Below are positions 2,073-17,654 of a stretch of DNA of 64,000 nucleotides, piece by piece (the first letter of the stretch is position 1; each line of letters starts with the position of its first letter). The position numbers were made by a program, and so were the translations under genes. The stretch is from Parcubacteria group bacterium (GTDB lineage Bacteria; Patescibacteriota; Minisyncoccia; Phycocordibacterales; Phycocordibacteraceae). Location of the stretch: contig JAQBQV010000002.1 of the NCBI GenBank assembly GCA_028286825.1, positions 2,157-66,156 on the forward strand, in the 5' to 3' direction. The notes beneath the pieces are model-generated. The model did no database searches, was not told the origin of the DNA, and worked only from the letters and a program-made list of their open reading frames with translations.

Positions 2073-2078
2073 TAGGGG

Positions 2079-2084: not shown

Positions 2085-2090
2085 AATGAC

Positions 2091-2423: not shown

Positions 2424-2424
2424 A

Positions 2425-2452: not shown

Positions 2453-2474
2453 AAAATAAGTAATGATTAGCTAC

Positions 2475-2588: not shown

Positions 2589-2618
2589 TCAGGGATTATC
2601 GCATACCTCCGACACAGT

Positions 2619-2649
2619 GGTTCCCACGTCGTACCAGACGTCGAGCTCG
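2619..2649 (+). repeat. intergenic motif, short form
   Basis: Sequence is GGTTCCCACGTCGTACCAGACGTCGAGCTCG, 29/31 identical to the consensus. Confidence 0.9.
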
Positions 2650-2673
2650 AGATAACAATGGTAATTCCTTGTT

Positions 2674-3273: not shown

Positions 3274-3300
3274 ATTGCTTATTGTTACGGCTGTAAAAAA

Positions 3301-3330
3301 GTTCCCACGTCGTACCAGACGGCCAGCTCG
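3301..3330 (+). repeat. intergenic motif, short form
   Basis: GTTCCCACGTCGTACCAGACGGCCAGCTCG, an exact consensus match. Confidence 0.9.
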
Positions 3331-3335
3331 TACTA

Positions 3336-3341
3336 TATACT
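3336..3341 (+). promoter_or_regulatory. -10 box, leaderless-type
   Basis: TATACT, with ATG 3348 lying 6 nt downstream. Confidence 0.5.
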
Positions 3342-3347
3342 TAGCTC

Positions 3348-4277
3348 ATGTCTGGAAGTTCTCGACAGGAGATACGCGTTGGAGTGCTTATGTATACCTA
3401 TGATCGCGTTGATGATGCGCGAGTCAACATGGAAATAATTCGAAATGTCTGGTCGAAAGTTCCCTTGCTCAAAGATGTAGTCGTTGTACACGCGTATAAC
3501 GGTAACCAAGATTGGTGGCCAGAGGCGTATTTAGAAAATACTCTTTGTCGCACAGACAACCCAGGACATTTTAGCGGTGCAGAGCTTCTCCTCAATACAG
3601 GCATTCAAGTTTTCAAGGAAAAATATCCAGACATCACGCATGTTGTTGTTCTCGCTTCTGATACGTGGTGTGTTAAGCCTGAATATATACAAAATGTCAT
3701 TCAAGAGATGGTATCTAAAGAACTCTATCTTGCAACAAACGCGTGGGGTAGTAAGAAAGATACAAATATGTTCAAAATTGGTATGGCGCTCGATTTATTT
3801 ATTCTAGACATGGATTTTGTAAAGAAGTCTGAATTTTTTCCTTTAAACTACAAGAGCTTTGGTGACAAATACGGAGAACTTCTTATGTATCGAGGCACTT
3901 TCGCGTTTCTTGAGCGTGTGTTTGCCCTTAGGTTTAAGCAGGCACTCATGAGAATTGCTCCTATTCCAAGTGAAAATCTTATTGAGAAGGTTGCCTTAGC
4001 TCACCTCTATCATATGCGTGAACGTGAACCAGTACATTATGAGCAAAAAGCTTTTTTCAAAAAACCTATAGGGAAGAGGCACATGTATTGGCCAAAAATT
4101 GGGTTATTGACCCATCATGATCCGGTCGAGAAACGGCGCGCACTGAAGGAATATCGTCTCTCGCTAGGCGAGCACGGAAGACGTTTCCTTGAGGCAAGGG
4201 ATTTCAAGTATTTTAATCAAGGGAAAAATAAAACCACTTTTGTGAAAGGAGCCAAAACTATCGACTACAACGACTAA
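3348..4277 (+). CDS. hypothetical protein
   Basis: 309-aa ORF. TATACT 3336-3341 lies 6 nt upstream of the ATG. No motif I can name with confidence. Confidence 0.6.
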   Translation: MSGSSRQEIRVGVLMYTYDRVDDARVNMEIIRNVWSKVPLLKDVVVVHAYNGNQDWWPEAYLENTLCRTDNPGHFSGAELLLNTGIQVFKEKYPDITHVVVLASDTWCVKPEYIQNVIQEMVSKELYLATNAWGSKKDTNMFKIGMALDLFILDMDFVKKSEFFPLNYKSFGDKYGELLMYRGTFAFLERVFALRFKQALMRIAPIPSENLIEKVALAHLYHMREREPVHYEQKAFFKKPIGKRHMYWPKIGLLTHHDPVEKRRALKEYRLSLGEHGRRFLEARDFKYFNQGKNKTTFVKGAKTIDYND

Positions 4278-4282
4278 ATAAA

Positions 4283-4313
4283 GCTTCCCACGTCGTACCA
4301 GACGGCCAGCCCG
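4283..4313 (+). repeat. intergenic motif, short form
   Basis: Sequence is GCTTCCCACGTCGTACCAGACGGCCAGCCCG. Confidence 0.9.
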
Positions 4314-4334
4314 TGATACGATTTATATAACGTC

Positions 4335-4565
4335 ATGCCAAAGAAGAGACAGACATCAAAGACCTACAAGCATTACCACAAAGATGGGAGTTTGTGGGCA
4401 GAAGGGAAACTGGTAGAAGGGCAAATGGAAGGCTTTTGGAAGTGGTTTCGAAAAGATGGCACCAAAATGCGTTCAGGCTATTTCAAATCAGGAAAGCAGA
4501 GCGGCAAATGGACGACCTATGACAAAACAGGCGGAGTCGTTAAAGTTACAGACTTTGGTAAATAA
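4335..4565 (+). CDS. MORN-repeat (YwqK-like) protein
   Basis: Contains repeated G-x-W-x-x-[FY]-x-x-x-G-x units (EGFWKWFRKDGTKMRSGYFKSGKQSGKWTTYDKTG). Confidence 0.75.
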   Translation: MPKKRQTSKTYKHYHKDGSLWAEGKLVEGQMEGFWKWFRKDGTKMRSGYFKSGKQSGKWTTYDKTGGVVKVTDFGK

Positions 4566-4620
4566 GTTCTAATTTTGTACTGCAACTATTCCAGCATGGA
4601 AGCTGTTATATACTGCACAC

Positions 4621-4875
4621 ATGTTTAGCTCAAGGCAGACGGCGCTCTTAATCTTGGCTATCACTGCTGTCGTGTGTTCCCGGGTAATGTTTTCGCTCTT
4701 CAATGATCCTGAGGGTCCCAATCTACTGGTGGTCATGGGGATGGCAGCAATCCTCTATTTCCTATCTTTGGCGGCATATATATACAATCCCTTAGAAACC
4801 GGCCTCAAGAATCTTGTACTAACTATTTTCATCCAGGTACTACTAGCTACCGGTCTTTATTTCTGGTTGAGTTAA
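4621..4875 (+). CDS. small integral membrane protein
   Basis: 84 aa with three hydrophobic segments. TATACT 4609-4614 lies 6 nt upstream of the ATG. Confidence 0.6.
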   Translation: MFSSRQTALLILAITAVVCSRVMFSLFNDPEGPNLLVVMGMAAILYFLSLAAYIYNPLETGLKNLVLTIFIQVLLATGLYFWLS

Positions 4876-4876
4876 A

Positions 4877-4906
4877 GTTTCAACTTCGTACCACAATGCC
4901 AGCTCC
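4877..4906 (+). repeat. intergenic motif, degenerate short form
   Basis: Sequence is GTTTCAACTTCGTACCACAATGCCAGCTCC, 1 nt after the stop of 4621..4875. Confidence 0.6.
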
Positions 4907-5023
4907 TTAAGCCAAGGTAAGCATTTACTCATAATTTCCAGCTGTCAAGAAAGTGCCAGGTCTAAGATAACTGCTTATCCCCCTATTTACGATTGTATGA
5001 TCTGGGTCGCGTATACTAACCCC

Positions 5024-5533
5024 ATGAACACAACCAATAAGAGGATAATAATCGCAGTTATCGTAATACTACTCGTAGCTGGTGGTCTATGGTTTATGAC
5101 GACTCGGTCTTCAAACACGAGCGACACCCTTGGCACCCCAGATAATTCAGGGCAGGCAGATCAGGTAACAAAGAACGGTCAAAGCGTTACGACGAAAACA
5201 ACCACCACGACCGCTACCTCGTCGCCTGCGGATGTAACCGGGCAAATCGAAATCGGCATGAATCAAACAGGAGGAGCGTTCGGGGTAACCATCACTCCGG
5301 ATCAGGTGGTAGAAGATAGCCGCTGTCCGACGGACGTGAAGTGTATCCAGGCCGGCACGGTTCGAGTACATGTACTCTTCAATGGAGTAACGAGCCAGAC
5401 TATCGCCATCGGCGATCGAATAACGCTTGGAGGAGAGGCAGTCACTCTTCTACAGGTAAAGCCAGCTAAAGTCTCAACGGTCACCCTTAAAAATTCTGAT
5501 TATCGCTTCGTCTTCAAGATTGAGCAGCCCTAA
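5024..5533 (+). CDS. membrane-anchored/secreted hypothetical protein
   Basis: Has an N-terminal TM segment and a Thr-rich linker. TATACT 5012-5017 lies 6 nt upstream of ATG 5024, so the track start 4997 is less likely. Confidence 0.6.
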   Translation: MNTTNKRIIIAVIVILLVAGGLWFMTTRSSNTSDTLGTPDNSGQADQVTKNGQSVTTKTTTTTATSSPADVTGQIEIGMNQTGGAFGVTITPDQVVEDSRCPTDVKCIQAGTVRVHVLFNGVTSQTIAIGDRITLGGEAVTLLQVKPAKVSTVTLKNSDYRFVFKIEQP

Positions 5534-5550
5534 TCACTTTTGCTGTTGTG

Positions 5551-5650
5551 ATTACTCACGTCGTACCGTCGATTTAGAAGACAAGAGGCAGGGTCATTGT
5601 GTTTTCTAAAGTACTCCTATGACATGACTTTGAGGTAGTGGCGGCCAGCC
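5551..5650 (+). repeat. intergenic motif, split form with unrelated insert
   Basis: The left half is ATTACTCACGTCGTACCGTCGA (5551-5572) and the right half is GTAGTGGCGGCCAGCC (5635-5650). The 62-nt insert can form a TTTAGAAgACAA / TTGTgtTTTCTAAA hairpin. Confidence 0.55.
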
Positions 5651-5724
5651 AAGTGCGTAACTGAGGTGATGGCCGGCTACAGACAAGAAACAAAAGCTGA
5701 GGTGATACAATCTAGATACGTAGT

Positions 5725-8283
5725 ATGCTAGCCTTGCGTAAGTCGTGCTTATTTTTAACCGTTATCTTTGTGTGCGGTGTCTATTTTGCATTGCCTCCTG
5801 TATTGTCTGCGGCAGAGCGAGGAGCGCAATCAGACAGTATTGGTACAGGAGCAGAATATGCGCCGTCTGAAGTTCTGGTCAGGTATAAAAAGTCAGGTGT
5901 CAATTTGGAAACATTTGCGGGTAGAAACGTCGCGTCAGATATAAGCAAGCGCAAATTCCTTGCAATAGAGGAGCATTTCCAGAAAGAGAACATCTCTCTT
6001 TTGAAAATTAAGGACAGAAGGTCAGTTGAGGAGGTAGTCGCAGAGCTCAAGAACGACCCAAACGTAGAGTACGCAGAGCCAAATTATACTCGGAAGATCT
6101 CAGTGATTGGTTCTAACGATACTCACGCAGCTCTTCTTTGGGCTCTCGACAACTCAGGTCAAACGATACCCGGAAGTTTCGGCACGATCGCGGGTACTGT
6201 CGATGCGGACATTGATGCCCCCGAAGCATGGGCGATAAGCGAAGGAGGGGATGCAACTGTAGTTGTCGCCGTTATTGATATTGGTGTCTTGTACTCGCAT
6301 CCCGATCTACTCGCAAATATGTGGGATGGAACGAACTGTAAGAGTGACACAGGTGCTGCTCTAGGCGAGTGCAGTCATGGGTACGACTATCAGGACAACG
6401 ACAAAGACCCGCTGCCGTCGGGAGGAGCTTCTCACGGCACGCATGTGTCGGGAGGTATTGGAGCCGTGAAGGATAACGGGGCAGGCATTACGGGCGTTGC
6501 TCCCCATGTGAAAGTGATGGCTATGCGATTTGCGCTCAATGTTTCCTCTGAGATAAAGGCGATCGACTTTGCGATTCAAAATGGCGCGAAAATAATCAAT
6601 GCTAGCTTTGGTGGACCAGGATTTTCACAGCTCGAATACGATGCGATAGAGCGCTTCAAAGAAGCCGGAGGCATTTTCGTCGCTGCAGCAGGGAATTGTG
6701 GGGATGCGGCCACCTTTGCTGCCAATGGGTGTTCAAGTCAGAATCAAGTCCTTTACCCGGCAGGTTACGATTTGTCGAATATTATCTCTGTAGCTGCCAC
6801 TGCTCAGGACGATACGCTTGCAACGTTCTCAAATCACGATCAAACATGGGTTGATGTCGGCGCACCGGGTACGAACATCTTAAGTACTATCACCGGAAAT
6901 GCCTACGCTTACTCAAGCGGCACTTCGATGGCTGCGCCATACACGGCTGGGCTTGCAGCGTTACTATGGGGATACAACAACGATCTTTCATTTGCGGAGG
7001 TAAAAAGTCTCATCCTTGATAATGGAGATATTGAAGATTCTCTTGTCGGTGCCACAGTCTCAGGGAAAAGGATCAATGCTCAGAAATCGCTTTTTGGTGC
7101 AACTATTTTATATGCAGACTCGCTTCACGATGGAGCTGTAGAAGGAGTGGGTCCCGACCTGTACGCAGTCGGGTCTAGGGCGATTCTTCAAACAGCGATA
7201 GATGTCGCGACAGAGATCAAAAATAACAGCGAATCCTCTGACGCCGACATAACCGCAGCCGTCGTTGACTTACGTGCGGCTCTCACGACATTTCTTGCTG
7301 CGCGCAATCCGGAATTTTCAAATCTAACAGCTCTCACTCTTGCCATCAGTAGCGCGCAAGCCGTTCTGGCTTTGGCAGAAGAAGGGACAGTGCCCGGGCA
7401 CTACGCTCTCGGCTCGATAGCAACTTTGAATACTGCACTGGATTTAGCGCTCCTCATTACTGATGGAGACTCGCAAGCAACAGTAGATGCATCCGTCGTA
7501 GCACTAAATGCTGCTGTCCAGGCGTTTCAAAATGGCAGAGTTTCCCCAGTCATTACTACTTCGCTTGACACTGGCGGTTCAATAAACCCATCTGGGTCAG
7601 TCGTTGTCTCTTATGGGAGCGATCAGATGTTTACAATAACTGCTGACAGCGGGTACGCGATCAAAGAGGTTTTAATTGATGGCATATCCGTTGGCACAAA
7701 TGGCACGCAACTCTTTAGTAACGTAGTCGCTCACCATGTGATAACGGCTACTTTCGATCCGGTTACTTTTAGCAGTGTTTCCGTTGGTGGAGGTGGAGGT
7801 GGAGGAGGAGGTGGTGGTGGAGGCGGCGGTATTTCTTCGTCAGCGCCGCCAGCTCCGGTAGTAGCTCCGATTGTGAAAGCTGTCCCAATCACCCAAACTA
7901 AACCGAGTGACTGCAAGCCAGGCTTCTTGTTCAGTCCATCAACGGGACTTTCGTGTGGACCCCTGCCAGACTCATCAGATTTGCCGCGCTTCTTACTCGC
8001 ACAGGCCAGCGCTCCTCTAGAGACCGCCGCTGCGCCATTCCTATTCAACAGAAATCTCACGCTAGGAACTGTCGGAGCAGATGTGAGGCAGCTACAAATC
8101 TACCTTAATGCGCGTGGCTTCATTGTCTCAGCAGCAGGTGTTGGGTCAGTTGGGAATGAAAGTACTTATTTTGGAGCGTTAACCAAGAAGGCACTCGCCG
8201 AGTATCAAAGCGCAACTGGTATTAGCCCGGCCGCTGGCTACTTGGGACCCGTTACGAGAGCATATGTTAATACCCACCAGTAG
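5725..8283 (+). CDS. secreted subtilisin-like (S8) serine protease with poly-Gly linker and C-terminal peptidoglycan-binding domain
   Basis: Signal peptide present. Catalytic triad contexts are VAVIDIGV (Asp), HGTHVSG (His) and SGTSMAAP (Ser). The C-terminus (LTLGTVGADVRQLQIYLN...YFGALTKKALAEYQ) resembles PG_binding_1. Confidence 0.9.
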   Translation: MLALRKSCLFLTVIFVCGVYFALPPVLSAAERGAQSDSIGTGAEYAPSEVLVRYKKSGVNLETFAGRNVASDISKRKFLAIEEHFQKENISLLKIKDRRSVEEVVAELKNDPNVEYAEPNYTRKISVIGSNDTHAALLWALDNSGQTIPGSFGTIAGTVDADIDAPEAWAISEGGDATVVVAVIDIGVLYSHPDLLANMWDGTNCKSDTGAALGECSHGYDYQDNDKDPLPSGGASHGTHVSGGIGAVKDNGAGITGVAPHVKVMAMRFALNVSSEIKAIDFAIQNGAKIINASFGGPGFSQLEYDAIERFKEAGGIFVAAAGNCGDAATFAANGCSSQNQVLYPAGYDLSNIISVAATAQDDTLATFSNHDQTWVDVGAPGTNILSTITGNAYAYSSGTSMAAPYTAGLAALLWGYNNDLSFAEVKSLILDNGDIEDSLVGATVSGKRINAQKSLFGATILYADSLHDGAVEGVGPDLYAVGSRAILQTAIDVATEIKNNSESSDADITAAVVDLRAALTTFLAARNPEFSNLTALTLAISSAQAVLALAEEGTVPGHYALGSIATLNTALDLALLITDGDSQATVDASVVALNAAVQAFQNGRVSPVITTSLDTGGSINPSGSVVVSYGSDQMFTITADSGYAIKEVLIDGISVGTNGTQLFSNVVAHHVITATFDPVTFSSVSVGGGGGGGGGGGGGGGISSSAPPAPVVAPIVKAVPITQTKPSDCKPGFLFSPSTGLSCGPLPDSSDLPRFLLAQASAPLETAAAPFLFNRNLTLGTVGADVRQLQIYLNARGFIVSAAGVGSVGNESTYFGALTKKALAEYQSATGISPAAGYLGPVTRAYVNTHQ
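7786..7830 (+). repeat. GGN trinucleotide run encoding a 15-residue poly-Gly linker
   Basis: There are 15 consecutive GGT/GGA/GGC codons inside 5725..8283. Confidence 0.95.
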
Positions 8284-8323
8284 TTCATGTGTTATTTACT
8301 CGAATCACATATACTGGAATCCT

Positions 8324-8581
8324 ATGGATACCGAGGACCAGAACAAACAGAATCAGGAGGAGTTTAAGGTGGATGGGGAAGAGCTTATTCGTAAAGTGAA
8401 GGAACTGATAAAAGCGGGCAATGCCCGAAGGATTATCATTAAGAATGACGTGGGCGAATCACTCATTGAAATCCCTCTCACAATTGGCGCAGTTGGAGCT
8501 CTCATTGCTCCCGTTCTCGCTGCAGTCGGAGCGATTGCTGCCTTGATGACGAAATGCACCATTGTTGTCGTGAAGAAATAA
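8324..8581 (+). CDS. DUF4342-like small protein
   Basis: ELIRKVKELIKAGNARRIIIKNDVGESLIEIPLTIGAVGALIAPVLAAVGAIAAL matches the pattern. TATACT 8310-8315 lies 8 nt upstream of ATG 8324. Confidence 0.65.
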   Translation: MDTEDQNKQNQEEFKVDGEELIRKVKELIKAGNARRIIIKNDVGESLIEIPLTIGAVGALIAPVLAAVGAIAALMTKCTIVVVKK

Positions 8582-8618
8582 AGACGGATTCCTGATTCTT
8601 AACATGAAAGGGGGTAGT

Positions 8619-8689
8619 GGTTCCGTATTCGTGCCGGTGACCTGACTGCAATGAGTTAGCGAAATGGCAATACTCTTGTGTCGAAGCTG
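8619..8689 (+). repeat. intergenic motif, degenerate long form
   Basis: GGTTCCGTATTCGTGCCGGTGACC...GAGTTAGCGAAATGGCAATACTCTTGTG aligns with the 400-487 element, with an internal deletion. Confidence 0.6.
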
Positions 8690-8694
8690 AATAA

Positions 8695-8724
8695 CAAAAA
8701 AGACCCGCGCTTGGGTCTTTTTTG
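8695..8724. terminator. bidirectional rho-independent terminator
   Basis: Sequence is AAAAAAGACCC gcgctt GGGTCTTTTTT. Confidence 0.75.
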
Positions 8725-8749
8725 TTACGTGTCTTCTACTGTTCCTCGC

Positions 8750-9196
8750 TTAGCCTTGCGCGGTTTGTTTTGGGTCAAAGTCGACCATCCATTCAATGCC
8801 AAATTTGTCTCTAAACATTCCAAAGTATGTTCCCCAAGGACTGTCTCCAATAGGCATTTCAACGGTACCGCCCTCTGAAAGTCCGTTAAATAAGGTGTCT
8901 GCTTCTTCGCGACTGTCTGCGCTAATTGCTATCTTAGATCGGTTTTCGTTTTCACTTACTTGGCCCATGCTGTCTGGAATGTCATTGGCCATCAGTGTGT
9001 TTTGACCAATAGGCAATGCGATATGCATTATCTTATTTGCGTCGTTCTCAGCCACAGGAAATCCTGGACTTGAGAGGTCTTTGAAACGAATAATTTTTGC
9101 AAACTCTCCGCCGAAAACCGATTTATAAAACGTAAATGCTTCTTCAGCATTTCCATTAAAGTTAATGTGAGGGTTGATATGTGTCATATGGCTCAT
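8750..9196 (-). CDS. VOC (glyoxalase-fold) family protein, PhnB-like
   Basis: HINFNGNAEEAFTFYKSVFGG ... FGIEWMV matches the family. The start was chosen at MSHMTH; the track start 9256 is an N-terminal extension. Confidence 0.7.
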   Translation of the reverse strand: MSHMTHINPHINFNGNAEEAFTFYKSVFGGEFAKIIRFKDLSSPGFPVAENDANKIMHIALPIGQNTLMANDIPDSMGQVSENENRSKIAISADSREEADTLFNGLSEGGTVEMPIGDSPWGTYFGMFRDKFGIEWMVDFDPKQTAQG

Positions 9197-9298
9197 TATA
9201 TCAAACGCTAGGTACATACAGAGCAGCGGTGGCAACGGCGAACTGAATCCCGCCACAGCGGGTTTCCGTTATGAGAAATGAGATCGAAACGGGTGATC

Positions 9299-9775
9299 TT
9301 AACCGCGACGCGCTGCGTCAATAGCGTCCACATCAATTTTTTTCATTGTCATCATTGCTTCAAACGCACGTTTTGCTTCAGCGCCACCTGCTGCCATAGC
9401 ATCAGTTAGCGTGCGTGGCGTGATCTGCCAGGATATTCCCCAACGATCCGTACACCAACCGCATTGACTTTCTTTACCGCCATTCTCAACAATCGCATTC
9501 CAATACCGATCCGTTTCCTCTTGATCATCTGTTGCGATCTGAAATGAAAATGCTTGCGTGCGCTCGAATGCCGGACCGCCGTTAACGCCAACACAAGGAA
9601 TTCCACTGACAATAAACTCCACAGTTAGCACATCCCCCTCCTTACCATCTGGATAATCGCTGGGCGCATTATGCACAGCAGTAACCTTACTGTCGGGGAA
9701 AGTTGCGGCGTAAAAGCTGGCTGCGTCCTCAGCGCCTGATTCGTACATAAGGCAAACGGTATTTTTTGGTGTCAT
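9299..9775 (-). CDS. VOC family protein (PhnB / 3-demethylubiquinone-9 methyltransferase-like domain)
   Basis: Contains FYAATFPDS ... ETDRYWNAI ... QCGWCTDRWGISWQI. It is a paralog of 35386..35877. Confidence 0.75.
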   Translation of the reverse strand: MTPKNTVCLMYESGAEDAASFYAATFPDSKVTAVHNAPSDYPDGKEGDVLTVEFIVSGIPCVGVNGGPAFERTQAFSFQIATDDQEETDRYWNAIVENGGKESQCGWCTDRWGISWQITPRTLTDAMAAGGAEAKRAFEAMMTMKKIDVDAIDAARRG

Positions 9776-9972
9776 AGTTGTAAGTGATTGAATTGTTAGT
9801 ATATCTAATATTTGAATGAAGGATCTTGCGTCTAAGTTTTTTACGTAAAAGGTTGGTAGCTAGCACACTCTAGCCATGCTTTTGTCGTCTACTCAAGTAA
9901 TGGATTTGAAGTAAGGTATCGACTGCACACAGTCACGAAATAAACACATAACCTCTGGTATACTCAAAATAT

Positions 9973-10308
9973 ATGAAAAATTTCACTGTTATATATATGG
10001 CGCCGGCCGCAGCAATGGAAGAATGGATGCAAAAACCTGAAGCGGAGCGTAAGGAGGCGGAAACTAAAATGAAGACGGGGTGGGACGCATGGATGGCCGC
10101 GCACACCGATACGGTCCTCAATACCATTGCCCTCGGAAAGACTAATCGAGTGAGCGCGTCAGGTGTTGAAGCAGTTAAAAACGACATGATGCTGTCTTCG
10201 TATGTGCAAGGAGAAACGCTTGAAGCGGTTGCGGAGGTATTTAAGGATCATCCGCACTTCGGTATCCCAGGGGCCACCATTGAAGTGATGGAGACGCGTC
10301 CAATGTAG
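9973..10308 (+). CDS. hypothetical protein
   Basis: 111-aa ORF with TATACT 9957-9962 upstream. No recognised motif. Confidence 0.55.
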   Translation: MKNFTVIYMAPAAAMEEWMQKPEAERKEAETKMKTGWDAWMAAHTDTVLNTIALGKTNRVSASGVEAVKNDMMLSSYVQGETLEAVAEVFKDHPHFGIPGATIEVMETRPM

Positions 10309-10345
10309 GGCTCTGACGATCCTAGCGTAGTAGAAACATGGACAG

Positions 10346-10377
10346 AAAATCCCCCGTCTCTTAAAGAGGCTAGCTCG
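10346..10377 (+). repeat. intergenic motif, degenerate short form
   Basis: AAAATCCCCCGTCTCTTAAAGAGGCTAGCTCG has the same CGTC-N13-AGCTCG spacing as the consensus. TAGAAT follows 5 nt later. Confidence 0.5.
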
Positions 10378-10394
10378 TGGGGTAGAATAGGTGT

Positions 10395-10973
10395 ATGAAA
10401 AAAATTGTCTTAGGGATACTGATCACTCTTGCTGTTTTGATCGTGGCCTTTTACACAGTTAACGCGTATATCTACCATGAAAAGCAGGCGACTGCAGTGG
10501 CCAATTATAGAGATGGCGAATACCGCATTGAGGGATCGTCGGTAACCCTCAAGGGCGGTGTTTCTATTGTTGAAGCAGCACCTGGCTCTGCCTCGAAAGT
10601 AACTACTCGTTATTTTGGCAATGATTATATGGTTGATCTGGACGGGGACGGGCGCGAGGACCACGTCTTCTTACTCACACAAGAAACAGGCGGCAATGGA
10701 GTTTTTTATTATGTCGTCGCAGCCCTTAACACTAAGCGAGGATACATTGGTTCTGATGGATATTTTCTTGGCGATAGGATTGCTCCTCAAACGGTGGGAT
10801 CGAGCCAAAATCCCCGACACCAGAATGTCATTGTTGTGAACTATGCAGACCGTGCTGTGGGCGAACCCGTGACCGCTAAACCTTCGGTTGGGGAAAGTGT
10901 GTATCTTAAACTGGATCCGACGAGCATGCAGTGGGGAATTGTTGAGCCAAATTTTGAAGGAGAATCAAATTAG
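10395..10973 (+). CDS. membrane-anchored hypothetical protein
   Basis: N-terminal TM segment. TAGAAT 10383-10388 lies 6 nt upstream of the ATG. Confidence 0.6.
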   Translation: MKKIVLGILITLAVLIVAFYTVNAYIYHEKQATAVANYRDGEYRIEGSSVTLKGGVSIVEAAPGSASKVTTRYFGNDYMVDLDGDGREDHVFLLTQETGGNGVFYYVVAALNTKRGYIGSDGYFLGDRIAPQTVGSSQNPRHQNVIVVNYADRAVGEPVTAKPSVGESVYLKLDPTSMQWGIVEPNFEGESN

Positions 10974-11056
10974 GTGTTCAGGAAGGTTCCCAAGTTTATA
11001 TCACCCATCAATCCTGTGGTGTGTCCATGCGGTAGTGATGTCAGCTCATTGGAGAA

Positions 11057-11473
11057 TCATCGCGGATGATAACTCCTCCAAAGAGTGCGCCATGGTTGAT
11101 AAAGTAAAAAGACTATTACCCCTACGAGCGCAGAATTCGCACCAAGAAGAAAGAAGTATGCAAACCAACAGCACTCTTTCGCATAAAAATAGTAAGGGAT
11201 CTTTGTATGACAGGCGACCAGATTTGTATCGGGTGCTCCAGTTGCACGTGCAGCCTCGGCTTCTCGCATATACTCTGCAATTGTTGCATGCATAAAGGTG
11301 AAAAAAACTGCCGCTACGCCGAAATATTCAATTAACCCCTTATGAGTCGCAAGGGCAACCGTGACAAGTACAATAAGTACCAGCGCACCCTCAACGTGAT
11401 ATGTTTTACAGTTAAATAATTTTTTGATCTTTTCCACCACAACTACAGGGATATAGGAGATTTTATTTTTCAC
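11057..11473 (-). CDS. integral membrane protein
   Basis: 138 aa with several hydrophobic segments. Confidence 0.55.
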   Translation of the reverse strand: MKNKISYIPVVVVEKIKKLFNCKTYHVEGALVLIVLVTVALATHKGLIEYFGVAAVFFTFMHATIAEYMREAEAARATGAPDTNLVACHTKIPYYFYAKECCWFAYFFLLGANSALVGVIVFLLYQPWRTLWRSYHPR

Positions 11474-11522
11474 GATAAAGAGAGTATATCAAAGGACTTA
11501 ACGTCCTTTTGGCCTCTAGAAA

Positions 11523-11623
11523 GGTTCATGTCGTACCAAATCTACACCCATGTTTCAAGGCTCTCAGGAAACGGGTGAGCATTCTAAGGTGCCTAAATAA
11601 CTTATACCCCGGCTCAGCTTGCG
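11523..11623 (+). repeat. intergenic motif, split form upstream of lexA-like gene
   Basis: The left half is GGTTCATGTCGTACCAAATC (11523-11542) and the right-half-like sequence is CCGGCTCAGCTTGCG (11609-11623). The insert is unrelated. Confidence 0.45.
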
Positions 11624-11624
11624 T

Positions 11625-11648
11625 TTAGAGCAATTGCTCTAATATACT
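11625..11648 (+). promoter_or_regulatory. 18-bp perfect palindrome (candidate LexA operator) abutting -10 box of lexA-like gene
   Basis: TTAGAGCAATTGCTCTAA (11625-11642) is followed directly by TATACT (11643-11648), and the ATG is 6 nt later. Confidence 0.6.
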
Positions 11649-11654
11649 GTGGGT

Positions 11655-12218
11655 ATGACTGACGCCAAAGACAAAATCGCCAACTTCTACCGCAAGCGCC
11701 GCCGGATGCCATCGCATACCGAGGTCGCGAAGCTTCTCGGCTACAAATCTCGAGGTGCGACGGCCTATGCGATCCAGAAGCTCGTAGACGCAGGAGTTGT
11801 GTCTAAGGATAAGACCGGCAGACTTCTGCCTGGTGAGCTGCAATATGGGTTAAAAATGCTGGGCTTGGTCGAAGCTGGTTTCCCATCAGCAGCTGAAGAG
11901 GAACTCCTCGACGTCATGAACTTTGACGAATACCTCACTCCCAACAAGGAGTCGAGCTATATCTTGAAAGTGAAAGGTGACTCAATGATCGAAGCGGGTA
12001 TCCAAGAAGGGGACATGGTTATCGTCGAGCGCAGGCAAAGCTATAAGCCCGGACAAATTGTGATTGCTTCTGTTGATGGAGAGTTCACTATTAAATATCT
12101 GCGCAAAGGGCAAGGAGGTTACTTTCTTGAACCAGCTAACTCAAAATACAAACCTATTTACCCAGAACAGACGTTGAACATCGAGGCGGTAGTTACGGCA
12201 GTAGTACGCAAATACTGA
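11655..12218 (+). CDS. lexA: LexA-like repressor / S24 self-cleaving peptidase
   Basis: N-terminal winged-HTH region, an Ala-Gly site (VEAGFP), a Ser in VKGDSM and a Lys in FTIKYL. ATG 11655 lies 6 nt after TATACT 11643-11648. Confidence 0.85.
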   Translation: MTDAKDKIANFYRKRRRMPSHTEVAKLLGYKSRGATAYAIQKLVDAGVVSKDKTGRLLPGELQYGLKMLGLVEAGFPSAAEEELLDVMNFDEYLTPNKESSYILKVKGDSMIEAGIQEGDMVIVERRQSYKPGQIVIASVDGEFTIKYLRKGQGGYFLEPANSKYKPIYPEQTLNIEAVVTAVVRKY

Positions 12219-12219
12219 T

Positions 12220-13527
12220 ATGGCGTGGGGTTCCATACGTTCCTACCCGCGCGCCATCCTCCACGTAGACGGAGATTCTTTCTTTGTATCTTGTGAGGTA
12301 GCAAAAAATCCCTCCTTGAAAGGAAAGCCTGTAATCACTGGGAAGGAGCGGGGTATCGTATCCGCAGCGTCATACGAGGCGAAAGCGAGGGGCGTGAAGC
12401 GAGGTATGCGGTTATTTGAGGTGAGGCAGATTTGTCCTAACGCGGTGATACTCCCCTCAGACTACGAGACGTATAGTCTCTTCTCTGAGCGCATGTACAG
12501 AATCGTGCGCAGGTATACGCCCGCGGTAGAGGAGTACAGTATAGACGAGTGCTTCGCTGACCTTACTGGTCTGCGCGGAAAACTGCACTTGAGCTATGAG
12601 CAAATCGCACAAAGGATAAAACACGATCTTGATACTGAGCTCGGGATGACATTTTCAATCGGCGTATCAGCAACAAAGACGCTTGCAAAGATCGGCTCTA
12701 AGTGGAAGAAGCCATCAGGCCTCACTATGATTCCGTTACGAGATAAGCCAGTCTTCTTGGAGAAGACTCCTGTCGGAGCCGTGTGGGGGGTTGGTCCGAA
12801 CACAGCAGCGTTGCTTAATACATGGGGAGTACGGACTGCACTCGACTTTGCGAAAAAGCCTGAGGCTTGGGTGAAAGAGAGGGTGTCAAAACCATACTTT
12901 GAGACCTGGCAGGAGCTAAATGGAGTTGTTTCAAATGAGCTCGATGTAGACGGAAGGAAGGGATACAAATCGATTAGCAAAACAAAGACTTTCACTCCGC
13001 CATCTACGAGCCCAACATTTGTATATGCTCAGCTCTCAAAAAACATTGAGAATGCCTGCATCAAGGCTCGTCGGTGGGATTTGGTTAGTCCGGTTATTTA
13101 CTTTTATATTTTGACGCAAGACTTTCGTTACCACTCCTATGAGATTAAACTTCCATATCCAACAAACGTTCCGCAAGACATTCTGAAAGAAGTGTCAAAA
13201 TATTTCGCAACATTGTTCAAAAAAAATACGGAGTATCGAGCCACAGGAATTATTCTTGCCAAGCTCTCTGACGGTAAAACAGTCCAGCTCGACCTCTTTG
13301 GCTCAGTCCAAAAGTCCGAAGCCATTAAACGGGTGTTTGAGAGCGTCGATACGATGTCTGAAAAGTTTGGGAAGCATACTATTTTTCTTGGGTCCAGCTT
13401 TGAAGCCATGACCCATTCAGCACATCTCGGGGATCGGGGCGATGTCACCAATCGTGTCGTCAGCTTGTTTAAGGGCGAGACAAAGCGGAGACGTCTAGGA
13501 ATCCCTATGCTTGGCGAGGTCAGATAG
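12220..13527 (+). CDS. Y-family DNA polymerase (UmuC/DinB-like)
   Basis: Contains ILHVDGDSFFVSCE and YSIDECFADLTG catalytic motifs. There is a 1-nt gap after the lexA-like gene. Confidence 0.9.
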   Translation: MAWGSIRSYPRAILHVDGDSFFVSCEVAKNPSLKGKPVITGKERGIVSAASYEAKARGVKRGMRLFEVRQICPNAVILPSDYETYSLFSERMYRIVRRYTPAVEEYSIDECFADLTGLRGKLHLSYEQIAQRIKHDLDTELGMTFSIGVSATKTLAKIGSKWKKPSGLTMIPLRDKPVFLEKTPVGAVWGVGPNTAALLNTWGVRTALDFAKKPEAWVKERVSKPYFETWQELNGVVSNELDVDGRKGYKSISKTKTFTPPSTSPTFVYAQLSKNIENACIKARRWDLVSPVIYFYILTQDFRYHSYEIKLPYPTNVPQDILKEVSKYFATLFKKNTEYRATGIILAKLSDGKTVQLDLFGSVQKSEAIKRVFESVDTMSEKFGKHTIFLGSSFEAMTHSAHLGDRGDVTNRVVSLFKGETKRRRLGIPMLGEVR

Positions 13528-13592
13528 GGTAAAAAGACAAGTGACGTTATCAGGTTCACTCGGTATTCAGAGCGTAGTGGTAGAATTCCTCT

Positions 13593-13976
13593 ATGTTTAA
13601 AAATACAGAAGCGTTCAGCAGCTATTCAGTTGATTCTATCGAAGAAGCATTACGATTTTATAAAGACAAACTTGGCTTAGTAGTTGCAACGACTAAGGAA
13701 GGGTTGGAAATAACACTGGATGGACGGCGCCTGTTTCTGTATCAGAAGCCAAATCATACTCCCGCGTCATTCACCGTTCTCAATTTTGTGGTTAATGATA
13801 TTGATGCTGCTGTTAAAGAGTTGGAGACAGTAGGAGTAACACTTGAAAAATATGATATGAATGAAATGCGTGCTGATGAAAAGGGTATCTATCGAGGGTC
13901 TTCCACTGGAAATGGTCCTGATATAGCTTGGTTTACGGATCCCGCAGGGAATATTCTGTCTGTTATTCAAAAATAA
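13593..13976 (+). CDS. VOC/glyoxalase family protein
   Basis: 127 aa with a glyoxalase-like pattern (ALRFYKDKLGL ... DPAGNILSV). TAGAAT 13581-13586 lies 6 nt upstream of the ATG. Confidence 0.75.
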   Translation: MFKNTEAFSSYSVDSIEEALRFYKDKLGLVVATTKEGLEITLDGRRLFLYQKPNHTPASFTVLNFVVNDIDAAVKELETVGVTLEKYDMNEMRADEKGIYRGSSTGNGPDIAWFTDPAGNILSVIQK

Positions 13977-13984
13977 ATCTGCTC

Positions 13985-14590
13985 ATGAGAAAAATAATCA
14001 CCACAACCTTTATAACCTTAGATGGTGTGATGCAGGCTCCAGGAGGTCCCGAAGAGGACACGGCAAACGGATTTGCCTATGGTGGCTGGCAATTGTCATA
14101 TCCTTCAGGCGAGACGCTGGACTCTAAGATGAGCGAATTCATGCATGCTCCGTTTGAGCTTCTCCTGGGGAAAACGACCTATACCATCTTTGCTTCGTAC
14201 TGGCCGACTGCGACGACTGATCTCGAGGTGGCCGATCCGTTTAACAGGACAAAGAAATACGTCGTCTCACATCACTCTTTTGAGCCCGGGTGGAGTAACT
14301 CCGTCTGTATTACCGGTGACGTCGTAGCAGAGATCAAGAAACTAAAAGAAGAAGAGGGTCCAGATCTGTGGGTGTATGGGAGTGGGGACCTCATTCAGAC
14401 ATTGCTCAAATACCACCTGATCGATCGCATGCATTTGTGGACATATCCGATCACCATTGGTACCGGCAAACGGCTTTTCTCAGAGGGAACCCAAGCGGAA
14501 AACTTTAAGCTTATTGACGCTCAGATTTCGACGACGGGCGTTATCTTTGCTACCTACGAGCCAGTCGGCGACCTAACTGTTAAAGCGTGA
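13985..14590 (+). CDS. dihydrofolate reductase-like (RibD C-terminal domain) family protein
   Basis: MRKIITTTFITLDGVMQAPGGPEED ... LWVYGSGDLIQTLL matches the family. The track start 13928 overlaps the upstream gene. Confidence 0.75.
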   Translation: MRKIITTTFITLDGVMQAPGGPEEDTANGFAYGGWQLSYPSGETLDSKMSEFMHAPFELLLGKTTYTIFASYWPTATTDLEVADPFNRTKKYVVSHHSFEPGWSNSVCITGDVVAEIKKLKEEEGPDLWVYGSGDLIQTLLKYHLIDRMHLWTYPITIGTGKRLFSEGTQAENFKLIDAQISTTGVIFATYEPVGDLTVKA

Positions 14591-14618
14591 AGCGATTTAT
14601 CGTTTAACATAGAGTCTT

Positions 14619-14972
14619 ATGACGCAGCCTCGAATCTACACAATGAGCTTCGCAAGCGTTTATCCTCTATATGTCACTAAGGCGGAGAAAAAAGGACGCA
14701 CGAAAGCAGAAGTTGACGAAACCATTCGCTGGCTCACCGGTTACAGCCAGAAAGAGTTAGGAGCGCAAATTAAAAACCAAACAACCTTTGAAACGTTCTT
14801 TGCGGAAGCTCCTAAACTCAATCCGCTGCGGGCTCTGATTACGGGTGTGGTCTGTGGTGTCCGCGTAGAAGATATCACCGAGCCTACAATGAGGGAAATT
14901 CGCTATTTGGATAAATTAATCGATGAGCTCGCAAAAGGGAAAGCGATGGAGAAGATTTTGCGGAAGCAATAA
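14619..14972 (+). CDS. DUF2200-like protein
   Basis: Shows the [37 protein letters not shown] pattern. Confidence 0.7.
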
Positions 14973-14974
14973 AA

Positions 14975-14997
14975 GTCAAACGTCGTTGCCTTGGTGG
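14975..14997 (+). repeat. intergenic motif, degenerate copy
   Basis: GTCAAACGTCGTTGCCTTGGTGG lies 2 nt after the stop of 14619..14972 and retains the ACGTCGT core. TATAAT follows directly. Confidence 0.4.
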
Positions 14998-15011
14998 TAT
15001 AATGCGTACCT

Positions 15012-15365
15012 ATGGAACATAGGAAAGGAGGGTGTCACTGCGGCAAAGTGCGTTATGAGGTGGAAGTTGACCTCACTAAACCAGTCGTCGAGTGTAACTG
15101 CTCAATCTGTGGTGGCAAAGGACTGCTTTTGTCGTTTGTCCCGACAGAACAAATGACGGTTCTCTCAGGCGAGGACTCACTCACGGAGTACCGGTTTAAT
15201 ACTGAAAAAATTGTCCACCTTTTCTGCAAAGTGTGCGGTACTGAGACATTTGCCAGAGGTGAAGGTCCAGATGGAAAAGCAACCTATGCCATTAACGTTC
15301 GCACTCTCGATGAGGTGGATCTTGCTACGCTCAGTCGTATGCCCTACGACGGCAAGGCACTATAG
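15012..15365 (+). CDS. GFA (glutathione-dependent formaldehyde-activating / CENP-V) family protein
   Basis: GGCHCGKVRYEV ... CNCSICGGKG gives the zinc-binding Cys pattern. TATAAT 14998-15003 is upstream. Confidence 0.85.
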   Translation: MEHRKGGCHCGKVRYEVEVDLTKPVVECNCSICGGKGLLLSFVPTEQMTVLSGEDSLTEYRFNTEKIVHLFCKVCGTETFARGEGPDGKATYAINVRTLDEVDLATLSRMPYDGKAL

Positions 15366-15390
15366 GTTTCCCACGTCGTACTAGTGGCCC
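15365..15390 (+). repeat. intergenic motif, short form
   Basis: GGTTTCCCACGTCGTACTAGTGGCCC overlaps the last base of the stop codon of 15012..15365. Confidence 0.75.
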
Positions 15391-15393
15391 ATT

Positions 15394-15402
15394 TGTTATA
15401 GT
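15394..15402 (+). promoter_or_regulatory. extended -10 promoter element, leaderless-type
   Basis: TGtTATAGT, with ATG 15409 lying 6 nt downstream. Confidence 0.5.
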
Positions 15403-15408
15403 TACGCT

Positions 15409-15654
15409 ATGAAAAGTGTTGCTTCAGAAACACCTCACAAAATACCGACGGATTTACGAAAGGCCTTGTCTACGGCTCCTAAGGCGCAAGCAACGTGGGA
15501 AGATATCACGCCGCTGGCCCGCAATGAGTGGATTTGCTGGGTTACATCTGGCAAAAAAGCGGAAACGAGGAATATTCGTATAGAAAAGGCACTCTCGAAA
15601 CTGAAGGGCGGAATGCGTAGGCCCTGCTGTTGGGTTGGCTGCCCTCACCGCTAA
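15409..15654 (+). CDS. YdeI/OmpD-associated family protein
   Basis: Contains WEDITPLARNEWICWVTSGKKAETRNIRIEKAL. The extended -10 TGtTATAGT 15394-15402 ends 6 nt upstream of the ATG. Confidence 0.75.
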   Translation: MKSVASETPHKIPTDLRKALSTAPKAQATWEDITPLARNEWICWVTSGKKAETRNIRIEKALSKLKGGMRRPCCWVGCPHR

Positions 15655-15665
15655 AAGTTACACCG

Positions 15666-16157
15666 TTATTCATCTGTCGATGCGAACCATAGTGAGAGAA
15701 TGGCCCCGAGACCGATAGAAAGAATACCGATACCGTAGAGCGTTAAACTAACGGCAGGTGTCCAGCTGAGTATATGGAGATTGCTTAGCAAGAAATTCCA
15801 GTCGTGAATGACAGAGTCACCACCGAGTAGCGGTAGCTGCATCGTGATGGCGTCGCCAGCATAGACGGAAACGTTGATGAGATTTTGGCCTACCCACATG
15901 AGACAGAGAGCTGCTGAGAATCGTTGTTCGGTAATCCAGAAATAGAGAGCTATAGAGAGCGGTAATACTATCTGGAAACCCGATCCCATCAAAACACTAG
16001 TGAACTGTCCAAAGAAAATGAAGATAGTGTGGCCAGCTTCGTGGAAAAGCAGATTAGCGTAGTCGATGTAGTGCCAATCCATTTGCGTCGTTGCACAGTA
16101 AAAAAAATATCCGCTCATAATAAGGGCTATGATGTAGCGGCTTCGTATGGAGAACAT
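15666..16157 (-). CDS. integral membrane protein with HExxH motif (putative metalloprotease-like)
   Basis: Multi-pass hydrophobic protein with LFHEAGH near the N-terminus. Confidence 0.6.
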   Translation of the reverse strand: MFSIRSRYIIALIMSGYFFYCATTQMDWHYIDYANLLFHEAGHTIFIFFGQFTSVLMGSGFQIVLPLSIALYFWITEQRFSAALCLMWVGQNLINVSVYAGDAITMQLPLLGGDSVIHDWNFLLSNLHILSWTPAVSLTLYGIGILSIGLGAILSLWFASTDE

Positions 16158-17194: not shown

Positions 17195-17248
17195 TCACAA
17201 GGTTTTTCACACCAAGTCTAATTTTGAGATCCTGATATACTGAATCAT

Positions 17249-17575: not shown

Positions 17576-17654
17576 AAATTTTCAACGTCAGCGATATTAG
17601 TAGGGCATGGCGTAAGACGTGAGGTGTGTAATCGTCAGGGGCTAGACATACAGT

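Follow-up and report, generated by a model that had tools for sequence, protein, structure and literature searches.

Between 8.6 and 15.4 kb of the window, i.e., the whole 64-kb stretch of DNA that was analysed, lies a series of small accessory genes whose content, as read from Pfam matches (Table 1), agrees with the original prediction. The GC content amounts to 0.44 in the array of motif copies that precedes them, to 0.47 at 8-16 kb and to 0.49-0.53 over most of the remaining window, and the lower value of the array was counted in favour of the cassette platform discussed below. Related loci (L046, L048, L050 and L053) hold differing subsets of the 8.6-15.4 kb genes in differing orders, which bears out the variable presence that had been anticipated among related genomes. 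Homologues of the genes at 9973-10308 and 15409-15654 adjoin intact motif copies elsewhere (L023, L027, L024), and the genes of the window are intact where the motif has decayed.

The motif itself, AnAaaGGTTCCCACGTCGTACCAGACGGCCAGC, extends over ~33 nt, with the fuller consensus A-n-A-a-a-GGTTCCCACGTCGTACCAGACGGCCAGC, and gives a linear logo like that of a protein-binding site; its sequence conservation is very high, the apparent degree being inflated because the training copies were fetched by pattern. In the long form, a left and a right module are separated by an insert, of which a 58-nt variant recurs in several copies. Folding of the short and long forms, with both strands treated as single-stranded DNA, gave no hairpin (z -0.6 to +0.6 against shuffles), and neither long-range mutual information between motif columns nor any palindrome, terminal inverted repeats or target duplications were found at the motif. 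The sole complementary stretch, CGTC/GACG (4 bp), is missing in the common variants ACCACGCGG and ACCACACGG, so that a Xer/dif-type site was rejected, and the motif shows no inverted-repeat arms as in simple tyrosine-recombinase sites. The GTTRRRY core is also absent: the boundary of the motif reads ...GGCCAGC, and the GGTTCCC at its 5' end has pyrimidines at the required RRR. Rfam 15 yielded no match at gathering score in the window, none with E<=1 in positions 1-16000, and tRNAs only in 18 related loci.

Sites were scored in three ways: (i) by cmsearch with a sequence-only model over the entire window, filters off, (ii) by a gapped two-module profile built from the window copies and compared with 300-500 dinucleotide shuffles per intergenic region (window-trained profile), and (iii) by the same profile test trained solely on 77 copies from other genomes (independent profile), for which 52 other intergenic strands of the window, with a maximum score of 22.4, served as a natural control.

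Table 1. Genes and motif sites of the window, with the scores obtained for each site.
Feature	Position	Strand	Description
c1, long form	397-487	+	left module, 58-nt insert (418-475), right module GGCGGCCAGCTCG; cmsearch left E=3e-4, right E=0.7; combined 47.8 vs null 17±2 (window-trained profile)
c2, intact	1166-1199	+	cmsearch 36.6 bits, E=2e-10
c3, intact	2039-2072	+	cmsearch 36.1 bits
c4, intact	2422-2455	+	cmsearch 45.3 bits
c5, intact	2616-2649	+	cmsearch 38.2 bits
c6, intact	3297-3330	+	cmsearch 44.4 bits
c7, intact	4280-4313	+	cmsearch 42.6 bits
c8, degenerate	4873-4906	+	combined 29.8 vs null 18±2, p<0.004 (window-trained profile)
c9, long form	5550-5652	+	left module, ~70-nt insert, right module; combined 38.0, p<0.004
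Decayed long-form copy	8619-8689	+	11-nt deletion; terminator after, no downstream + gene
Small accessory genes between eroded junctions	8750-15654	both	Pfam
VOC/PhnB-like gene	8750-9256	-	Pfam
VOC/PhnB-like gene	9299-9775	-	Pfam
Other gene	9973-10308		
Possible relic, not established	10344-10377	+	p=0.013 (window-trained profile), p=0.23 (independent profile)
Other gene	10395-10973		
Degenerate copy, previously unlisted	10983-11048	+	AAGGTTCCCAAG ... GATGTCAGCTCA, 3' of the stop of 10395-10973; convergent gene next; score 29.0, z=4.7, p=0.004 (independent profile)
Other gene	11057-11473	-	
Degenerate long-form copy	11520-11621	+	upstream of lexA-like/polymerase pair; left module with 2-nt deletion, ~70-nt insert, right module CGGCTCAGCTTG at 11610-11621; cmsearch E=0.028; score 32.6, z=6.2 (independent profile)
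S24 LexA-like gene	11655-12218		Pfam; adjoins polymerase gene
Y-family polymerase (IMS) gene	12220-13527		Pfam
VOC/PhnB-like gene	13593-13976		Pfam
RibD_C gene	13985-14590		Pfam
DUF2200 gene	14619-14972		Pfam
Site indistinguishable from chance	14975-14997	+	p=0.11 (window-trained profile), p=0.09 (independent profile)
GFA gene	15012-15365		Pfam
Half-kept copy	15365-15390	+	left half well kept with 1-nt insertion, right half decayed; overlaps GFA stop codon; cmsearch E=0.002; score 34.9, z=6.7, p<=0.002 (independent profile)
OmdA/YdeI gene	15409-15654		Pfam
Long-form copy	49563-49660	+	insert near-identical to c1; z=5.9
Short-form copy	50378-50409	+	after terminator, before DUF1428 gene; cmsearch E=8e-4, z=8.0

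Five eroded copies had been proposed downstream of the array. Those at 8619-8689, 11523-11623 and 15365-15390 are upheld by profile or insert scores, whereas 10346-10377 and 14975-14997 fall within the background, as do three possible relics at 13530-13585, 17209-17228 and 17581-17600 (p=0.14-0.64), which find no profile support and stay inside the range of the shuffles and the natural control. The sites at 10983-11048, 11520-11621 and 15365-15390 beat every control intergenic strand (z 4.7-6.7, independent profile). The site at 8619-8689 goes undetected with the core profile (p~0.5) and passes via its insert alone, which shows 33/36 identity to the insert of the long-form copies 397-487 and 49563-49660, with a local score of 57 against a null of 15±2 (maximum 26). 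Copies absent from the earlier list comprise 10983-11048, 49563-49660, 50378-50409 and two further intact ones directly upstream of window position 1 (seen in L052).

All supported copies of the window occur on the + strand, as had been stated. The -10 box expected after each copy is found at 11523 (TATACT at 11643-11648, ATG at 11655) and 15365 (TATAGT, ATG at 15409), but not at 8619, behind which lie a bidirectional terminator and a gene in convergent orientation, nor at 10983, where a convergent gene comes next. The suggested decay of the motif with distance from the array is real in a coarse sense only, the array being better kept than the rest; it is not monotonic, since among the distal copies that at 15365 has kept best, and those at 49.5 and 50.4 kb match it in quality.

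Beyond the window, full-scoring copies (36-46 bits) were identified in seven MAGs labelled Saccharibacteria, Kaiserbacteria, Parcubacteria, Minisyncoccia, Paceibacterota, UBA6033 and 'bacterium', as well as in 32 metagenome contigs; none occurred in IMG/VR. Depending on the locus, the arrays comprise 8 copies in 6.2 kb (L020), 9 copies in 7.9 kb (L027) or 7 copies in 6.1 kb (L014), and no polarity of motif scores was seen along the first two. Within each locus all copies share one strand and most intervals contain one ORF, with single-gene units that measure 0.3-1.4 kb and recur as many as 9 times. The motif is co-oriented with ~80% of the cassette genes; reverse-strand ORFs account for 18/90 cassette or adjacent ORFs, and certain intervals carry a reverse gene alone. 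The cassette products are small enzymes, including HAD, GrpB, HIT, NUDIX and nitroreductase proteins. In all of the 14 independent comparisons, which covered non-duplicate contigs, the flanks swap at the motif (7 pairs share the upstream side only, 7 the downstream side only, and 0 both), which was counted in favour of the motif as a cassette junction. Flank homology stops exactly at the motif on both sides, variants of its left half moving with the upstream gene and downstream homology beginning directly after CAGC. Misassembly of metagenomes at a repeat could in principle account for some neighbour changes.

In other genomes, the 3' end of tRNA-Gln forms another type of junction. It occurs in 14 of 34 non-duplicate loci, on the motif strand in 14/14 and upstream of all motif copies in 13/14, typically one gene-length before the first copy; L053 likewise has tRNA-Gln ahead of its array. 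A cassette found after tRNA-Gln in L034 and L009 stands behind the motif in L002 and L013, so that the two junctions are interchangeable. Homologous recombination would be insufficient between them, because just 9-12 of the last 15 nt of the motif agree with the tRNA-Gln 3' end. Compared as a whole, the motif shows no significant similarity to tRNA-Gln (p 0.2-0.5), and its 5' 18 nt, which are kept across lineages, have no counterpart there. Partial tRNA-Gln 3' copies lie inside the arrays of L002, L004, L007, L009 and L050. The 64-kb window contains no tRNA, and its array extends upstream of position 1.

With a probability of roughly 60%, Patescibacteria share a pool of cassettes, mostly of one gene each, whose junction site is the motif, on an integron-analogous platform anchored at tRNA-Gln. 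For a fuller scheme the odds seem about even: a gene-capture platform of Patescibacteria would use the tRNA-Gln 3' end as primary site, a 33-nt linear cassette site and a recombinase encoded elsewhere, with self-expressing leaderless cassettes, and the window would hold a young array and, at 8.6-15.4 kb, its fossil tail. Each cassette would consist of a short 5' region, usually equipped with a -10 box that would serve a leaderless mRNA, of one ORF in either orientation, and of the motif at its 3' end. Joined head-to-tail, cassettes build up co-oriented arrays, the first one being fused directly to the tRNA-Gln 3' end in other genomes; the tRNA end would take the role of attI and the motif that of attC. 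The chemistry would be a conservative site-specific recombination, possibly with a circular intermediate, carried out by a recombinase whose gene lies elsewhere in the genome, and the exchange point would be located at or just past the terminal ...CAGC common to the motif and tRNA-Gln. The sites, the arrays, the flank swaps at the motif and, in other genomes, the tRNA-Gln anchor are observed, whereas recombinase, circular intermediate and exchange point are inferred. The intact array of the window runs from upstream of position 1 to ~5.6 kb, and 8619, 10983, 11520 and 15365 would represent long-resident cassette junctions with decayed sites and intact genes. The original prediction of older, eroding copies of the array element in a modular gene pool is supported at these four sites and by the comparative data, but not at the remaining listed ones. 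The matches listed for the 64-kb window include no recombinase gene, nor do those for the ~190 ORFs of related loci within the top 25 families listed per search, where a weak match could hide; neither a circular cassette nor an empty site was encountered. Also counted against the cassette reading were a sequence that varies unusually little between lineages for a recombination site, the lack of inverted-repeat arms and the missing polarity of motif scores along L020 and L027.

The very high sequence conservation, along with the linear protein-site-like logo, would also suit a cis-acting expression signal conserved for its own function, e.g., as operator, upstream promoter element, factor-dependent terminator or processing site for RNA 3' ends, the change of neighbours being a by-product of homologous recombination among identical copies. 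The prevailing co-orientation with cassette genes and the usual place of the motif, behind a stop codon and ahead of a -10 box, also fit this unlikely explanation, as does a -10-like hexamer present in roughly half of the cassettes, whose end lies 5-8 nt upstream of the start codon (peak at 6-7 nt). However, the -10 box lies either 3-17 nt or >100 nt past the end of the motif, some intervals hold a reverse gene alone, copies 8619 and 10983 have no co-oriented gene downstream, and neither RNA structure nor Rfam match was found; moreover, the tRNA-Gln 3' end replaces the motif at an identity too low for homologous recombination. A sigma-70-type promoter element was rejected on account of the variable -10 spacing and of a two-hexamer promoter scan devoid of enrichment (9 found vs 9.9 expected). 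Judging from the reverse ORFs and from the intact genes at decayed sites, the motif appears not to be needed for the expression of cassette genes.

The tRNA-like last 15 nt of the motif and the partial tRNA-Gln copies inside arrays could also reflect a tandem accretion of tRNA-Gln-targeting integrative elements stripped of their integrases and of most of their cargo, in which case the motif would be a diverged attL/attR scar and not an active cassette site. This is rather improbable in view of the lack of significant overall similarity to tRNA-Gln, the conserved 5' 18 nt, the repeated single-gene units and the lack of integrase remnants among the matches listed for related loci. A REP- or MITE-like selfish repeat inserting in intergenic DNA would account for a short, exclusively intergenic repeat with a recurrent 58-nt insert variant, but is very unlikely for copies that are strictly co-oriented, clustered rather than genome-wide, free of terminal inverted repeats, palindrome or target duplications, and bordered by flank homology ending exactly at the motif. 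Chance resemblance suits 10346-10377, 14975-14997 and the three relics, with scores inside the shuffle and natural-control ranges, and is retained for these five; it is refuted for 8619, 10983, 11520 and 15365, which exceed all or all but one of the 300-500 shuffles, plus the 52 control strands, and as an explanation of the degenerate sites at 8.6-15.4 kb in general it is highly improbable. Finally, the shuffled, co-oriented single-ORF cassettes, each with a 3' repeat, recall a classical integron or CALIN with the motif as attC site, a reading made barely credible by the missing hairpin, R''/L''-L'/R' boxes and GTTRRRY core, by the lack of intI among the matches listed for the window and related loci, and by cassettes having their own promoters.

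Patescibacteria (CPR) are host-dependent, with very small and streamlined genomes, and their ways of acquiring and exchanging accessory functions are poorly understood. No published description of this cassette platform was found. If the cassette reading holds true, it would explain the circulation of small detoxification, nucleotide-salvage and stress genes across Patescibacteria lineages, would represent a second, independently built answer to the problem that integrons solve, and would give the genetics of these hard-to-manipulate organisms a natural target for site-specific integration. The motif also provides a simple annotation marker for the accessory part of these genomes.

With sedentary chromosomal integrons and CALINs, such as the Vibrio 'super-integron' with its VCR-type attC sites, the arrays share co-oriented, mostly single-ORF cassettes with the repeat at their 3' end, a cassette boundary at the very end of the repeat, shuffling among genomes, a distinct primary site heading the array (in related loci the tRNA-Gln 3' end, in the proposed attI role), a grab-bag of small accessory enzymes and a minority of reverse-oriented cassettes. 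They differ in that attC is a 55-140-nt imperfect palindrome read as a folded single strand, which keeps structure and not sequence, whereas the motif is a 33-nt linear one, nearly invariant in sequence across lineages, devoid of the GTTRRRY core, with no adjacent intI or Pc found, and most cassettes come with a leaderless promoter of their own. Integrative elements and genomic islands targeted to tRNAs, among which archaeal 'gene capture' bordered by tRNA fragments has reportedly been described (Williams 2002; She et al. 2001), resemble the arrays of related loci in being anchored at the 3' end of one tRNA, with partial tRNA 3' copies inside and a variable accessory cargo; they measure 10-100 kb, in contrast to the single-gene units found here, in which no integrase was found and the repeated junction is mostly not tRNA sequence. 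In the Xer-dependent modules, i.e., IMEX elements and the pdif modules of Acinetobacter plasmids, the recombinase works in trans from elsewhere in the genome on small gene modules bounded by ~28 bp sites, a likeness to the proposed platform; dif-like sites, however, have a 6-bp spacer flanked by two partly palindromic arms of 11 bp each, and pdif orientation alternates, whereas the present motif lacks symmetry, keeps to direct orientation throughout and is linked to tRNA-Gln.

The motif found between the single-gene cassettes has a length of about 33 nt and an information content that we estimate ourselves at ~45 bits, the logo of 83 distinct copies reading A(-4)nAaa GGTTCC[C/a]AC[G/a]TCGT[A/c]CCA[G/c][A/g]CGG[C/t]CAGC. 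It is built from a left module, AAGGTTCCCACGTCGTACCA, and a right module, GACGGCCAGC(TCG), which are separated in some copies by an insert of 55-90 nt. The array predicted at 0.4-5.6 kb is real, with six near-identical copies on the + strand and three weaker or interrupted ones. The proteins of the window match those of a 'Parcubacteria group bacterium' MAG at 100%. A degenerate 25-nt pattern retrieved copies with full scores from seven MAGs, which bear the labels Saccharibacteria, Kaiserbacteria, Parcubacteria, Minisyncoccia, Paceibacterota, UBA6033 and 'bacterium', and a metagenome scan gave 32 motif contigs from groundwater, peat and soil; since the external copies were retrieved by pattern, their conservation is partly by construction. 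Pattern matches in Streptomyces, Acidimicrobiales, a betaproteobacterium and Rhodothermales, of 16-23 bits and devoid of the 5' part, are treated as chance hits of a degenerate pattern in GC-rich DNA.

Some long-form copies carry a 58-nt insert, located inside the motif after ..GTCGTCCCAG and occurring in the window at 418-475, 49582-49640 and 8641-8681, with a fourth copy, 90-92% identical, in a UBA6033 MAG (locus L006, 4706-4763, - strand). The insert contains a hairpin that buries the Shine-Dalgarno sequence (AAGGAG) and the ATG of a mini-ORF (MEILLWWRPAR* and variants). Another motif locus, L014, shares the upstream gene tail and the left-half variant but lacks the insert. A structured RNA or ribozyme was rejected, as the motif matched no Rfam family at the gathering score or at E<=1, gave no folding signal as DNA on either strand, and displayed no long-range covariation between its columns over the 83 distinct copies. 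A phage origin was rejected as well, both the motif core and the 58-nt insert being absent from IMG/VR.

When the 60-nt flanks on either side of every motif copy were compared, seven pairs shared the upstream flank only and seven the downstream flank only, while the six pairs sharing both flanks are all duplicate assemblies of the same DNA. Left-half variants, e.g., CGTTCGGATATCGTCCC and ACCACACG, go with the upstream gene, and downstream homology starts immediately past the terminal CAGC. Judged from these sequence comparisons, the motif is probably a recombination junction, and because of this pattern of flanks and variants the cassette would be composed of a 5' region, an ORF and the motif, whose 3' end forms the cassette boundary. 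Metagenome assemblies may mis-join at repeats; against mis-joining, the 33-nt repeat is shorter than the typical read length, and many independent samples repeat this junction logic.

Co-oriented arrays of this type occur in several related loci, comprising 8 copies in 6.2 kb (L020), 9 in 7.9 kb (L027) and 7 in 6.1 kb (L014), and several others contain 5 copies. Most intervals harbor one ORF, and none of the loci contains a motif copy on the opposite strand. The encoded proteins are mixed (HAD, GrpB, HIT, NUDIX, S51, nucleoside deoxyribosyltransferase, SDR, nitroreductase, DUF488 and others), a character that agrees with that of the window genes, for which Pfam concurs with the gene content originally described. 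Reverse-strand ORFs account for 18 of the 90 cassette or adjacent ORFs, and some intervals hold a reverse gene alone; therefore the motif is not just a 5' or 3' signal for a gene in its own orientation. Within the window, the sole ORF of the interval 2456-2615, between two intact copies, lies on the reverse strand and encodes ~38 aa of hydrophobic sequence; the interval may be a very small reverse cassette or else non-coding.

The main rival reading sees the motif as a conserved signal for expression, with homologous recombination between its repeats. In about half of the cassettes a -10-like hexamer ends 5-8 nt before the start codon, so that the -10 box attributed to every degenerate site by the original prediction becomes a feature of about half of the cassettes in general, whereas a two-hexamer promoter scan showed no enrichment. 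The hexamer-to-start distances peak sharply at 6-7 nt, with 20 of 46 cassette genes (loci L002-L044), where the background is about one per bin; examples from the window are 2078-2093, 3336-3350, 11643-11657 and 15397-15411. Because of this peak, the sequences point to cassettes which tend to bring their own promoter for a leaderless mRNA, without a -35 box. The expression-signal reading is weakened by the reverse-only cassettes, by the variable spacing between motif and -10 box, by copies without a downstream gene and by motifs decayed beside intact genes. Homologous recombination is also unlikely for the exchange of tRNA and motif junctions described below, because the identity is too short. 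Inspection by eye led to the rejection of a sigma-54 or ECF promoter on either strand, the -12 GC being absent and the orientation wrong for the genes; no sigma-54-type promoter was recognized near the motif. The window encodes a protein with a sigma-54-interaction AAA+ domain (52716-53795, - strand; PF00158, E=4e-52), this being a Parcubacteria genome. A dif site at the replication terminus was rejected too, since the window has no GC-skew switch and the site is not palindromic.

The motif sites of the window were assessed with a sequence-only covariance model applied to its full length with the filters switched off, with a gapped profile of the two modules compared with 300 dinucleotide shuffles per intergenic region, and, against circularity, with a two-module profile trained on 77 copies from other genomes only, for which a further 52 intergenic strands of the window provided a natural control (maximum score 22.4).

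Motif sites and candidate sites of the window, with the result of their scoring
Feature	Position	Score or test	Outcome
Array copies (n=6), + strand	1166, 2039, 2422, 2616, 3297, 4280	mutual differences at few positions only	near-identical
Array copies (n=3)	397-487, 4873, 5550-5652		weaker or interrupted
Decayed long-form copy	8619-8689	33/36 identity to the insert at 397-487 and 49563-49660	real
Motif site	10346-10377	p=0.013 (window-trained profile), p=0.23 (independent profile)	not established
Motif site, newly found	10983-11048	score 29.0, z=4.7	real
Motif site	11520-11621	E=0.028; score 32.6, z=6.2	real
Motif site	14975-14997	p about 0.1	not established
Motif site	15365-15390	E=0.002; score 34.9, z=6.7	real
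Possible relics	13530-13585, 17209-17228, 17581-17600	p=0.14-0.64	no support
Two further good copies	49563-49660, 50378-50409	covariance model and independent profile	

Five degenerate sites and three possible relics had been proposed downstream of the array. Scoring against shuffled sequence upheld three of the five, 8619-8689, 15365-15390 and the site originally delimited as 11523-11623, and left the other two at p about 0.1-0.23 with the independent profile; the relics found no support. The site at 8619-8689 is recognized through its insert (match score 57, against a null of 15+-2 with a maximum of 26), as the core profile failed. Contrary to the proposed decay with distance from the array, conservation does not decrease monotonically. 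On the upstream side, a contig of the same sample (L052) carries two more intact copies (1-31 and 897-930), ~1070 and ~140 nt before the first position of the window and each followed by a gene, so that the array is larger than the window shows. Extension with same-sample Logan contigs gained ~1.07 kb and then broke at the repeat. Another k-mer contig of this sample (L001) starts inside the first array copy, c1, and ends inside the sixth, c6. Because short-read assemblies break at the motif repeat, arrays of this kind are probably under-represented in MAGs.

The genes of this stretch are variably present among relatives. In three loci (L023, L027, L024), intact motif copies adjoin homologues of the gene at 9973-10308 and of the OmdA gene (15409-15654). 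A related genome, L046, contains homologues of the genes at 4621, 9299, 9973, 13985 and 15409 in a different order, and lacks within 20 kb the lexA-like/polymerase pair, DUF2200 and GFA; in L048, 9973, DUF2200, OmdA and the Heavy_Cys gene follow the window order with other genes between them, a tRNA-Gln being located ~480 nt before the 9973 homologue. Exact-protein matches, searched for other contexts of the window cassettes, returned the same arrangement or none. The array has a GC content of 0.44 and the stretch at 8-16 kb one of 0.47; most of the remaining window lies at 0.49-0.53. The genes beside the decayed sites are intact, and therefore the motif would not be needed for expression and would erode once cassettes are fixed. 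From its sequence the region 8.6-15.4 kb thus reads as an older, partly fossilized stretch of the same platform, in agreement with the original prediction.

Two other features of the window were observed. A perfect 16-bp palindrome, TAGAGCAATTGCTCTA (11626-11641), abuts TATACT (11643-11648), the -10 box of the S24 LexA-like/Y-family polymerase pair, and is a likely SOS-box-like auto-operator. A patch of GC 0.42 at ~41000-47200, with a C5 DNA methylase (43288-44367) and a Mrr-type endonuclease (46469-47134, - strand), is probably a restriction-modification or defence islet; a Z1-domain protein is also encoded in the window.

As identified with Rfam and ARAGORN, tRNA-Gln genes adjoin the arrays. 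A tRNA-Gln 3' end occurs in 14 of the 34 non-duplicate motif loci, always on the motif strand (14/14) and in 13/14 upstream of all motif copies, in most cases separated from the first by one gene-length. Past the tRNA end (...GGCAGC|TCG.., CAA.., TAA..) the sequence is of the kind found past the motif, and two cassettes follow tRNA-Gln in one genome and the motif in another (the GrpB cassette of L034 vs L002, and L009 vs L013). Aligned from the junction, the final 15 nt of the motif agree with tRNA-Gln at 9-12 positions, which is their only resemblance; a tRNA-derived motif was rejected, local alignment of the whole motif to tRNA-Gln being non-significant on both strands. Partial tRNA-Gln 3' copies occur within arrays (L002, L004, L007, L050). 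In L007 (788-905) and L050 (9888-9955), a second partial or interrupted copy directly follows tRNA-Gln. The Parcubacteria genome L053, which encodes a homologue of the first window gene, has tRNA-Gln followed by accessory genes with half-decayed junctions, then the first-gene homologue and further small accessory genes including RibD_C. In L027, L048 and L050, dnaX lies just upstream of tRNA-Gln and a variable accessory region after it, an arrangement which looks like a conserved chromosomal hotspot in several Patescibacteria. The tRNA-Gln 3' end is the array anchor in these related loci and a presumed one in this genome.

Site-specific recombination between a cassette site and either the tRNA-Gln 3' end or another cassette site would best account for these arrangements. 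The exchange would take place at or adjoining CAGC, presumably through a circular cassette intermediate. No recombinase family was found in the window proteins or in ~190 ORFs of the related loci, among the 25 most frequent Pfam families listed, and for this reason the recombinase would act in trans. The literature covered, incompletely, contains no description of the motif sequence or, for Patescibacteria, of cassette arrays, integrons or tRNA-Gln islands, and an earlier description may exist.

Among known systems, integrative islands have the tRNA anchor in common with these arrays but not the island size and the internal integrase, and the second tRNA-Gln copies of L007 and L050 resemble the att duplications of integrase-mediated insertion. 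Xer/pdif systems would share the trans-acting recombination of small modules but differ in site structure. With respect to integrons, the motif lacks the hairpin, the R and L boxes and the GTTRRRY sequence that define attC, and no adjacent IntI was found, whereas the organization is the same: a primary site, shuffled single-gene cassettes, and cassette sites occurring at the cassette 3' ends with the boundary at the end of the site.
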